Source of the DNA: a bacterium
Lineage (GTDB): Bacteria; T1Sed10-126; CAZEBV01
Assembly (NCBI GenBank): GCA_042219765.1
Contig: JBDGPI010000089.1
Span: 25,119 to 59,356 of the forward strand
Direction: 5' to 3'
Length of the DNA: 34,238 nucleotides
A program made the translations under genes and the position numbers. The notes under the pieces are model-generated. The model did no database searches, had not been told where the DNA came from, and saw only the letters and a list, made by a program, of their open reading frames with translations. Below, piece by piece: positions 24,830-27,205 of this stretch; within the stretch, counting starts at the first letter, position 1; each line of letters starts with the position of its first letter.

Positions 24830-25600
24830 ATGAAAAATATACTTCACTCGCTTTTAATTGTGTCACTTTTCCTCGGATTGCCCCTCCAAAGTAATGCGGT
24901 GGACCATACTTTGTTCGACTCCGTCCTGAACAAGTATACGGATGGAGGTTACTTCGACTACAGCTCCTATGTCGAAGACCCGGAGTCAAGACAACGATTA
25001 GACCGCTATCGCAGTCAAATGAGCCAGGTTCAACTTAAAGAACTCGACGGAAAGGAGAAACTCGCTTACTGGTTGAACCTCTATAATGCCTCAACAATTC
25101 ACCTGATCGCCAAAAATTATCCCCTGGAAAGTATCAAGGACCTCGGGGGCTGGTTCGGGTCGCCCTTCGACAAAAAATTTATTCCCACTACAAAGGGGGA
25201 ACTTTCACTTAACACAATTGAACACGACATTATCCGTCCCGACTTCAACGAACCACGTATTCACTTTGCACTCGTCTGTGCCGCTCGTAGTTGCCCTCCC
25301 CTGAGATTCGAAGCTTACACGGCCGAGAAGCTCGACGAACAACTTGAGAATCAAGCTCGCCAGTTTATCGCCAGTGACAAAAATCGGTTCGTCATTCAAA
25401 ACGACCAACTGACCCTGAAACTATCGAGTATTTTCTACTGGTACGGTGAGGATTTTGGAGGAGAGTCCGGTCTAGCCAACTACCTCAAGAAATATTTGGA
25501 CGATCGGGGCAAGACACTTATCGGTCAAGGTAATTACTCAATCTCTTACCTCGATTACGACTGGTCACTGAATCAAGCCCCCGGCCCCTACCAGCGGTGA
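24830..25600 (+). CDS. Secreted DUF547-domain protein
   Basis: Signal peptide; LAYWLNLYNA, SLNTIEHDIIR, EPRIHFALVCAARSCPPL, LSSIFYWYGEDF, YDWSLN; GGGAGG SD. Confidence 0.9.
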   Translation: MKNILHSLLIVSLFLGLPLQSNAVDHTLFDSVLNKYTDGGYFDYSSYVEDPESRQRLDRYRSQMSQVQLKELDGKEKLAYWLNLYNASTIHLIAKNYPLESIKDLGGWFGSPFDKKFIPTTKGELSLNTIEHDIIRPDFNEPRIHFALVCAARSCPPLRFEAYTAEKLDEQLENQARQFIASDKNRFVIQNDQLTLKLSSIFYWYGEDFGGESGLANYLKKYLDDRGKTLIGQGNYSISYLDYDWSLNQAPGPYQR

Positions 25601-25746
25601 AACTATACAAAACGGGTGATACATCGGTTGAATTCGGGCCGCCGGATAATTTTCCAAACCGGAGATTACTTTTGCGGATCACTTCTATTCGTTAACTTAT
25701 AAAAAGATCTTATTGCTATTAAATCCTCGGATAAGGAGGTCCCATC

Positions 25747-26214
25747 ATGGCCGATGACCTAGCCTATGAGTCAAACATTAAGGTCACACGGGAGTACGGA
25801 ACCATCAGAACGGCTGAGCTTCCAGCCGAAGATGACCCCATTACATTTGGTGTTCACTCCGAAATTGCCGAACATTACGGCGTCGATACGGACGAGGAAC
25901 CACCCCACGCCACAACGCTGGACTACCTGGTATCGGCGGCCGCTGGATGACTTACGGGGACCTTTGGAGGCGCGCTGGAGGCGCGTCAAATCGATGCAAG
26001 CGACGGTAAACTCTGGTCGGAAACCACCGGTGAAATAGAAAAAGAAGACGACGTGATGGTCATTAAGCGCATCAAAGTTACCTATCACCTTGAGGCCGAT
26101 GAATCCGATCGGGAGACAATTGAAAGAGTGCACGAGGTCCACGCGGAACATTGTCCGGTGGCCCAGTCAATCAAGGGGGCAATTGACGTCTCCACCGACC
26201 TAATTATTGAGTAG
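25747..26214 (+). CDS. OsmC/Ohr-family peroxiredoxin-like protein, probable selenoprotein (UGA68 = Sec), 155 aa
   Basis: TAAGGAGGT SD. After TGA 25948-25950 the frame stays open for 87 codons to TAG 26212-26214: ...DYLVSAAAG-U-LTGTFGGALEAR...VHAEHCPVAQSIKG...; the TGA falls at the first conserved OsmC Cys and HCPV supplies the second; SECIS-like hairpin follows. Confidence 0.88.
25963..25990 (+). promoter_or_regulatory. Putative bacterial SECIS element
   Basis: TTTG-GAG-GCGCGC-TGGAG-GCGCGT-CAAA: 6 bp upper stem, bulge, 4 bp lower stem; apical loop begins about 25 nt after the UGA with G near its 5' side. Confidence 0.65.
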
Positions 26215-26422
26215 CACTGGTCCTGTAGGAAAGTCACTATTGTTACTCTTACGGGACGTTCCTGTAGCTATTTCCGTAGTCCGATAGCCTAATTTCACCG
26301 ATGTAACAATTTAAGCCCCTCTGTCCCTACCGTATCTGTTTTCATCAAGTTTGTCTGAAATCGGGAGGGTTTGTCACATCCCCCGTTCTAATTCGGCATA
26401 CTCGGGAGTTTCTAAGGAACTT

Positions 26423-27205
26423 ATGTACCGACTGGTGGATTGGCGAGTCCTCCCCGTGATTCTCTTGCTAATCGGTGGCAGTTCCTACATCGTTGCGGAT
26501 CGGTACAATTTACTATCCGGTGTCAGTCATCAACCCCAGGATGATCGGGCCGTTACCAGAAAACAGTTTCAGGAAATGATGCGGTTTCACGTCAAACGGC
26601 ATGTTGATCGACTCAGCGGGGATACGGTAAACCAGACCGTAACGCCCGACAGCGACGTCTCGGTTTCCGGAAGCAGCTCCTCGAGCCAAATACCGAACCG
26701 TCTCAAAGATAAATTCGACACCAGATCCCTGAGCCTGCTAAAACAGCTGGACCTGACTTACAAAACCCCGGCAACCTCCGATACTCAATTTTTACTGACC
26801 TCCCTCGCCGGAGATACCCTCTCGCTAAGACACTGGTCCGGTCACTGGCGGCTGATTAACTTCTGGGCGAGCTGGTGTGCGCCCTGCCGGGATGAAATGC
26901 CGGCTTTCAATCGACTTCACGAACAGTTCTCCGGAAAACCCCTCACAATTGTGGCCGTGAACATCAAGGAATCACGGTCCGAGGTAAAAAAGTTCGCACG
27001 CCAGTATTCCCTGGACTTTCCAATTTTATTGGACCAAGCCGGGTCCCTTTCGAAACAGTACGGAACGTTTACGTTACCGGAAACCTGGATCATCACACCC
27101 TCAGGTCAGGTTCTCGGAGCCGTACAGGGACCCAGGAACTGGGATAAGGAACCAGCAAGCAAACTTTTCAAGCAACTTGTCGGCGATACAGGCATGAATC
27201 CCTAA
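26423..27205 (+). CDS. Membrane-anchored TlpA/ResA-family thiol-disulfide oxidoreductase with N-terminal extension
   Basis: LINFWASWCAPCRDEMP, VAVN, FPILLD, LPETWII; start taken at ATG 26423 (AAGGA SD), followed by a TM segment. Confidence 0.88.
   Translation: MYRLVDWRVLPVILLLIGGSSYIVADRYNLLSGVSHQPQDDRAVTRKQFQEMMRFHVKRHVDRLSGDTVNQTVTPDSDVSVSGSSSSSQIPNRLKDKFDTRSLSLLKQLDLTYKTPATSDTQFLLTSLAGDTLSLRHWSGHWRLINFWASWCAPCRDEMPAFNRLHEQFSGKPLTIVAVNIKESRSEVKKFARQYSLDFPILLDQAGSLSKQYGTFTLPETWIITPSGQVLGAVQGPRNWDKEPASKLFKQLVGDTGMNP

Follow-up and report, generated by a model that had tools for sequence, protein, structure and literature searches.

The gene and its in-frame TGA codon

The window analysed here is a 34,238-nt stretch of DNA from a bacterial metagenome-assembled genome (MAG), and all coordinates below are positions within it. 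Its forward strand carries, at 25747-26214, the coding sequence of a predicted OsmC-family selenoprotein, which begins with ATG at 25747, six nucleotides after a Shine-Dalgarno-like sequence (TAAGGAGGT, 25732-25740, as read from the DNA), and ends with TAG at 26212-26214, giving 155 residues if TGA is translated as selenocysteine (Sec, U). Under the standard bacterial code (table 11) the open reading frame (ORF) is only 67 aa long, since it ends with ...DYLVSAAAG at a TGA in positions 25948-25950. This codon 68, the proposed Sec codon, is the single TGA of the 155-codon frame, which is otherwise open up to the TAG. It is followed by a putative selenocysteine insertion sequence (SECIS), a hairpin with the stem arms GCGCGC (25970-25975) and GCGCGU (25981-25986) and the apical loop UGGAG (25976-25980); further downstream, TGT at 26152-26154 encodes Cys136 of a C-P-V motif, proposed as the resolving cysteine on the basis of conservation and of alignments with PDB chains. 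The strong Shine-Dalgarno sequence, the 67-aa ORF and the read-through protein with U68 and C136 had been described in an earlier note on this DNA, and all of them are confirmed from the sequence.

The conserved domain of the predicted protein spans the TGA codon. In particular, the Pfam OsmC domain (PF02566) covers residues 56-150 (57.5 bits at a gathering threshold of 27.5, E-value 1.9e-15), and the AlphaFold2 model, calculated with 121 homologues, is a single domain with a mean pLDDT of 94.7, where residue 68 lies mid-way in the long central helix 57-79, and Cys136 is at the start of helix 137-142. A Foldseek search against the PDB matched 63 chains at E<=0.001, the best-ranked of those listed being OsmC, Ohr and OsmC-like structures, with 2onf at the top (E 7e-10, TMq 0.77), followed by 1lql, 1qwi and 6ebg. 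A PDB search with the single sequence gave no match, and a profile search yielded marginal matches only (E 0.007-0.7). Cys136 is invariant in all 121 aligned proteins, the C136-P137 pair being invariant or near-invariant, and in alignments with PDB chains 2onf, 2bjo and 1ukk it falls on the cysteine of their CP/CF motif. By its fold and the invariant C136-P137, the predicted product is an OsmC/Ohr-type redox enzyme, for which homology makes a peroxidase function fairly likely.

The same data bear on a possible dominant termination at the UGA, in which case the functional product would be the N-terminal peptide of 67 residues, perhaps accompanied by a C-terminal piece with its own start, and the gene would be split or regulated. 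Indeed, the 67-aa ORF has a good Shine-Dalgarno sequence, a second table-11 ORF (GTG start, 53 aa, 26053-26214) lies downstream in the same frame, and Sec insertion is usually inefficient. However, the TGA falls inside the Pfam domain and inside the one domain of the confident model, so that termination would cut helix 57-79 in the middle; the residues directly after the TGA (L69, G71, T72, F73) are 90-100% conserved in frame, and no conserved start or ribosome-binding site is found 3' of the TGA. Dominant termination is therefore a very improbable explanation of this locus.

The TGA codon is conserved in the homologues. Homologous loci were fetched from species-representative genomes (80 loci) and from metagenome contigs (another 80), and the codon in column 68 is TGA in all 160 of them. 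Four further homologue loci were found in 41 relatives of the source genome, one of the four being a second copy in the source MAG itself, and each has exactly one TGA, in column 68. Two larger samples were searched with a catalogue protein printed with C in column 68 as the query: among 251 Acidobacteriota genomes, all 43 matches (in 39 genomes) have one TGA, down to 35% identity, and among 201 Pyrinomonadaceae genomes TGA is present in five matches out of five, so that no Cys-form DNA occurs among the matches in either sample. Both halves of the protein are conserved, in agreement with the single gene assumed in the earlier note.

This conservation also decides about a nonsense pseudogene or an assembly error at 25948-25950. 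The window comes from one MAG, and among public contigs just one is nearly identical (X1, 1360 nt, depth 4.4). It spans 25600-26015 with 0 differences and thus reproduces the TGA, yet it may be derived from the same sample, so that its agreement alone is weak support; no variant of the three nucleotides is seen in any public contig aligned to the stretch. In contrast, the independent homologous loci, which number more than 200, have TGA in the same column without exception, and conservation downstream of the TGA is at full strength. By these comparative data a pseudogene or an error is effectively refuted, and we assign it a negligible probability.

Protein catalogues present column 68 in a different form: among the best 120 matches it is W in 108, C in eight, L in two and G in two. 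The W rows, in a comparison using table 4, match TGA-bearing loci at 92-98% identity (no exact identities between catalogue proteins and fetched loci were found, and these near-identical pairs were used instead), and therefore W here is TGA called under code 4. The G rows probably represent TGA under code 25. Cys forms are thus few in the catalogue. It had been suggested that standard gene callers would split or truncate the protein; truncation is what table 11 gives in the window, and mistranslation is what the 108 W rows contain. The two homologues with Leu in column 68 (P0103 and P0059, one of them on a 5.86-Mb contig) retain GGALEAR and C136, and may be real loss-of-Sec variants or miscalls.

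According to record titles, the carriers belong to Acidobacteriota, Chloroflexota, Desulfobacterales, Nitrospirota, Actinomycetota, Gemmatimonadota and NC10, as well as Rokubacteria, Latescibacterota, Poribacteria, Binatia, Dormiibacterota and others. One of them is a cultured actinomycete, Haloechinothrix halophila YIM 93223 (NZ_KI632509.1), which has the TGA and a GCGCGC/GCGCGC stem with the loop UCGAA, where C replaces the usual first G; its genome contains selA (430 bits). Moreover, the source MAG has a second copy of the gene (contig C113, 2082-2537, minus strand) that is 63% identical and has the same TGA column and the same hairpin. The 7-kb contig with this copy, matched by a contig in run X1, shows a lower tetranucleotide correlation (0.863) with the contig of the window, and hence its origin is ambiguous: the copy may be paralogous or belong to a contaminant.

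The hairpin downstream of the TGA codon

In the family alignment, with the U of UGA taken as offset 0, the stem is formed by offsets 22-27 paired with 38-33 (GCGCGC/GCGCGY), and the loop by offsets 28-32 (UGGAR, whose U and R are able to pair, leaving a GGA loop). The stem starts 19 nt past the UGA, and the spacing between the UGA and the loop is 25 nt (25951-25975). In 182 unique 72-nt homologous segments, 97.1% of stem cells are paired, and 166 segments have all six pairs. Compensatory double changes were observed in six sequences, U25-A35 in two and A26-U34 in four; they arise from an Ala-to-Val substitution on one arm and a synonymous change on the other.

As the stem is nearly invariant, synonymous-site conservation is a stronger argument than covariation. 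Third-base entropy was calculated from 187 coding sequences for 43 conserved columns with four-fold codons, and it is 0.79 bits for G75, 0.26 for A76, 0.20 for L77 and 0.33 for A79, that is, for the codons of the hairpin, compared to 1.15-1.94 bits in the 39 other columns. Since the latter include six Ala and six Leu columns, codon bias does not explain the low values. The loop nucleotide G at 25977 (offset 29) is the third base of a four-fold Leu codon (CTN), and 182 of the 187 sequences retain this G, while GAA and GAG are both freely used for the Glu in the loop. At the protein level, 107 of the 108 TGA-type catalogue rows keep G75-A76-L77-x-A79-R80, with variation only in the x position (the loop Glu), whereas of the eight Cys-type rows four keep it and four have changed residues encoded by the stem, though this is a protein-level proxy. 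These comparisons indicate that the predicted hairpin is under selection at the nucleotide level, the 5' arm being supported by pairing, compensatory changes and synonymous conservation, and the 3' arm by comparative pairing, synonymous conservation and folding.

The 28-nt piece with the hairpin has a folding energy of -13.3 kcal/mol (z = -2.89), and two of 200 shuffled sequences fold equally well. RNAalifold, applied to 150 segments, retained four pairs only, with an almost nil covariation term, which is due to the near invariance of the stem. The evidence for the candidate hairpin is comparative.

The hairpin can be compared with the bacterial SECIS (bSECIS) model as summarized in a 2026 review (PMC13188914, Fig. 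2 legend), which sets the upper stem to 4-16 bp, the apical loop to 3-9 nt with G within its first two positions (pattern N1-G-[G|U]-N-N2), the distance from UGA to the loop to 16-37 nt, and the minimum free energy to at most -7.5 kcal/mol. Here the stem has 6 bp and closes a loop of 5 nt (counted with U and R paired, 8 bp and 3 nt), G is among the first two loop nucleotides, the distance is 25 nt and the energy -13.3 kcal/mol, so that all four published limits include it, and the loop UGGAR fits the pattern.

The earlier note had drawn a longer hairpin, in which the stem described above, conserved as we have seen, stood on a lower stem TTTG/CAAA (25963-25966 and 25987-25990). This lower stem was rejected as a conserved element: in the 182 segments it pairs in 67.6% of cells, and the register slid by -1 pairs better (77.1%), although TTTG/CAAA does exist in the window.

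A minority of TGA-bearing loci deviate from the canonical stem (L208-L211, L213, L146, L156, L164 and L205). Among these, L208-L211 (GCG CTG GAG AAG CGA) may pair in a shifted register, with 4 bp closing the loop GGAGA, L164 has a possible GUGCC/GGCAC stem, and L146 and L156 have a hairpin CCGCC-GCA-GGCGG farther downstream.

Selenocysteine machinery and decoding of UGA68

The source MAG consists of 251 contigs and is 92% complete, with 8.1% estimated contamination; the window lies on contig C89. The genes selD (333 bits), selA (506 bits) and selB (260 bits) were found side by side on contig C41, all scoring over the curated cut-offs: selD at 71543-72460 on the minus strand, with one in-frame TGA, i.e. 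a Sec-containing SelD, adjoining selA at 69721-71043, and selB at 68637-69683, apparently in one cluster. A tRNA-Sec with the anticodon TCA was identified by ARAGORN on contig C133. The set of selA, selB, selD and tRNA-Sec, expected of a genome that inserts Sec, is thus present. The composition of both contigs is consistent with that of C89, as GC content is 0.525 for C41, 0.511 for C133 and 0.506 for C89, and the tetranucleotide correlation with C89 is 0.957 and 0.963, respectively, the median over 130 contigs being 0.937.

Carriage of the gene tracks selA. Among other TGA-bearing genomes, selA scores over the cut-off in 52 of the 55 tested (47 of 50, then five of five), and in the 41 relatives of the source genome selA is present in all four TGA-bearers compared to ten of 37 non-carriers.

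The genome uses TGA as an ordinary stop: of its 1579 long frames 649 end in TGA, as do, in the window, 13 of the 26 frames of at least 200 codons, including the gene directly upstream. There is no genome-wide reassignment, as the earlier note had stated from the window genes.

These observations are to be set against the possibility that UGA68 stands for Cys, Trp or Gly, whether through suppression, near-cognate decoding or a local change of the code, the hairpin merely slowing the ribosome. UGA-to-Cys decoding is reported from some settings, and column 68 appears in the public catalogues as W (108 of 120) or G (two of 120). However, the W rows go back to code 4 gene calls and not to TGG, as their identity to TGA loci shows; many long frames of the source genome are closed by TGA; the carriers come from many phyla with the standard code; the gene follows selA; and the synonymously conserved G of the loop suits a loop bound by SelB and not a simple roadblock. 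Decoding as a residue other than Sec is thus very unlikely, if somewhat less so than dominant termination.

Several points weigh against the reading of UGA68 as the Sec of a redox pair. The Sec machinery sits on other contigs of a MAG estimated to be 8.1% contaminated, and some of the catalogue rows with C may represent U, as search tools write U as C and these rows are ambiguous. As for the hairpin, its covariation is limited to six sequences, because most stem pairs never vary; at least one pair is broken in 16 of the 182 segments, and L146, L156 and L164 lack the canonical stem; longer pieces are not exceptional relative to shuffled sequences (48 nt, z = -0.41; 71 nt, z = +1.05); and Rfam gave no match at gathering thresholds in the whole window and chance-level matches in a permissive scan of 25900-26060. 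Finally, it is uncertain whether U68 is the peroxidatic residue, since the weak alignments differ by one helical turn. In the profile alignment with Thermus OsmC 1ukk (E 0.49), the first Cys of the latter is opposite column 68, and in the remote OsmC-like gene L027 a Cys is likewise aligned there, while the alignment with B. subtilis OhrB 2bjo (E 0.038) places the Ohr Cys opposite T72, matching C-F-G-G-A-L to T72-F-G-G-A-L, four residues after column 68. Whichever register holds, column 68 is the sole Sec/Cys column in the helix. Accordingly, of the OsmC/Ohr-like Sec/Cys pair proposed in the earlier note, the domain, the fold and C136-P stand, and the equivalence of U68 to the peroxidatic Cys depends on weak alignments that disagree.

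With these reservations, the conserved TGA column, the selection on the hairpin, the presence of the Sec machinery and the ordinary use of TGA elsewhere in the genome argue that UGA68 very probably encodes selenocysteine in one 155-residue gene of the OsmC superfamily, as originally proposed. In such a case, the hairpin GCGCGC-UGGAG-GCGCGU in the mRNA would be bound during translation by SelB carrying Sec-tRNA(Sec), and SelB would bring Sec to the ribosome, competing with release factor 2. By analogy with OsmC and Ohr, Sec68 in helix 57-79 and Cys136 may act together as the redox pair in a hydroperoxide reductase, where Sec68 would be the nucleophile attacking the peroxide, Cys136 would resolve the resulting selenenic acid as a selenenyl-sulfide, and a thiol donor would then reduce the latter. 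In this scheme the frame, the domain and fold, the conserved TGA, the selection on the hairpin and the presence of the Sec machinery are observed, while the actual incorporation of Sec, the reduction of peroxides and the reducing partner are inferred.

The gene is preceded by a DUF547 gene (24830-25600), which ends in TGA, and followed on the forward strand by a TlpA-like AhpC-TSA/Redoxin gene (26351-27205), whose product contains the motif W-C-A-P-C and is hydrophobic over a stretch at the N-terminus. This arrangement is not conserved: DUF547 was found in none of 194 homologous loci and the TlpA-like redoxin in one of 194, and clustering of the ORFs that flank the homologues gave a biggest cluster of nine loci only. 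As the neighbours are not conserved, no operon partner or reductant is proposed.

Annotation of the family and comparison with known systems

No NCBIfam model covers this family, though it is present in hundreds of sampled genomes and metagenome contigs. Catalogue calls print W where Sec is predicted, so that any selenoproteome census or redox annotation based on such calls will miss or mistranslate it; if the broader proposition given at the end of this section is correct, the clade may rank among the commonest unannotated bacterial selenoproteins, which public sets systematically contain in truncated form or with W or G in place of Sec. The W and G rows, compared with near-identical DNA that has TGA, suggest that code 4, and probably also code 25, is chosen by gene callers on short contigs, which would be a systematic selenoprotein artefact in large protein sets. 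The mechanism itself is textbook, and the noteworthy parts are the breadth of the clade, the dominance of Sec, the dual-coding SECIS and the mis-annotation. In particular, a thiol-peroxidase lineage with Sec as the norm is a natural case for studying why Sec is retained. The same 17 nt encode G-A-L-E-A-R and are predicted to form the SelB-binding hairpin, so that protein and RNA constraints overlap, and the near invariance of the hairpin across phyla could inform the rules of SECIS recognition or reveal that the gene and its SECIS were transferred as a unit. Moreover, the Sec prediction is directly testable, because the cultured carrier H. halophila YIM 93223 also has selA.

Compared with the OsmC/Ohr peroxidases (E. 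coli OsmC 1qwi/1nye, Thermus OsmC 1ukk, and Ohr 1n2f/6ebg/2bjo), the predicted protein has the same fold (Foldseek E 1e-8 to 1e-6, TMq 0.63-0.72) and a similar arrangement of a nucleophile (here the proposed Sec68) in the long helix and a C-P-motif Cys about 64-68 residues further. At the same time, the sequence similarity is marginal, the scores for OsmC TIGR03562 (28.5 bits, cut-off 85.8) and Ohr TIGR03561 (16.6 bits, cut-off 88.85) are too low for either subfamily, and a Sec is predicted in place of the Cys.

The hairpin resembles the bSECIS consensus (the bSECISearch model, with E. coli fdhF as the classic case) in that the stem-loop lies inside the coding region, a short way 3' of the UGA, that its apical loop is small and opens with G-G, and that its spacing and energy are inside the limits of the model as summarized in the review. 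It differs in having neither a conserved lower stem nor a detected bulged U, in matching no Rfam family, and in its almost invariant self-complementary stem GCGCGC/GCGCGY, which is retained across many phyla and also encodes G-A-L-E-A-R.

Sec-containing OsmC-like proteins had been mentioned in the earlier note as already described. Such a family does exist: three sequences with the motif UxxT, assigned to COG1765/PF02566, were reported from the Sargasso Sea in 2005 by Zhang, Fomenko and Gladyshev (PMC1088965), and the GOS study and the reviews of 2022 and 2026, in the parts that concern OsmC-like selenoproteins, again list them as a single UxxT family. The motif is printed in PMC1088965, PMC2398784, PMC9312934 and PMC13188914, and the tables seen in this literature give three to five Sec sequences and more Cys homologues; according to the section of the 2026 review on this subject, a far greater abundance of Cys homologues is the general pattern. 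The curated model NF041052 ("OsmC-related (seleno)protein") apparently represents this 2005 family.

The family of the window shares with NF041052 the superfamily PF02566, a second conserved Cys near the C-terminus and a bSECIS hairpin shortly after the UGA. The Sec, too, is at the same helix column, as compared by eye (...LAYFGLAVGF-U-LLTQ and ...LDYLVSAAAG-U-LTGT, respectively), and hence appears to be in a column homologous to the Sec of NF041052. However, the protein encoded in the window scores 26.8 bits against NF041052, with the cut-off being 95, while genuine members in other genomes score 100-165 bits; it has U68-L-T70-G-T72 (GULTGT, i.e. UxT/UxxxT) instead of U-x-x-T; and in its family some 55 additional residues at the N-terminus (FGVHSEIAEHYG) are conserved. 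Membership in the curated family is ruled out by this score and the GULTGT motif, and the already described proteins are thus a different subfamily.

Three genuine NF041052 genes were identified for comparison, all with TGA in F-U-L-[LM]-T and with hairpins of their own, unlike the nearly invariant hairpin of the window family: L221 (genome G041, contig C293, 2958-3380), L222 (G061, contig C21) and L223 (G046, contig C10). In these three genomes the NF041052 genes (131-165 bits) coexist with separate members of the window family. The source MAG has one more OsmC-like gene on contig C26 (L190, 4038-4358, plus strand), without an in-frame stop and with 48 bits to NF041052, which is below the cut-off; GC content of its contig (0.569) is above that of the rest of the genome.

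The low NF041052 score, the GULTGT motif, the N-terminal extension and the coexistence with NF041052 genes indicate that the window protein belongs to a putative second Sec-bearing OsmC lineage, distinct from NF041052. In this lineage TGA forms dominate and Cys forms appear to be rare, unlike the UxxT family with its more numerous Cys homologues in the published tables. No curated model or separate description of the clade was found in the literature, where supplementary tables may list its members as "OsmC-like". A broader proposition can be made only tentatively, and we consider it slightly less probable than its opposite: that this is a distinct OsmC clade (G-U-L-T-G-T-F-G-G-A-L-E-A-R), not separately described or curated until now, in which Sec would be essentially fixed, and which would extend over at least ten phyla from soil, sediment and saline environments with one almost invariant dual-coding SECIS.

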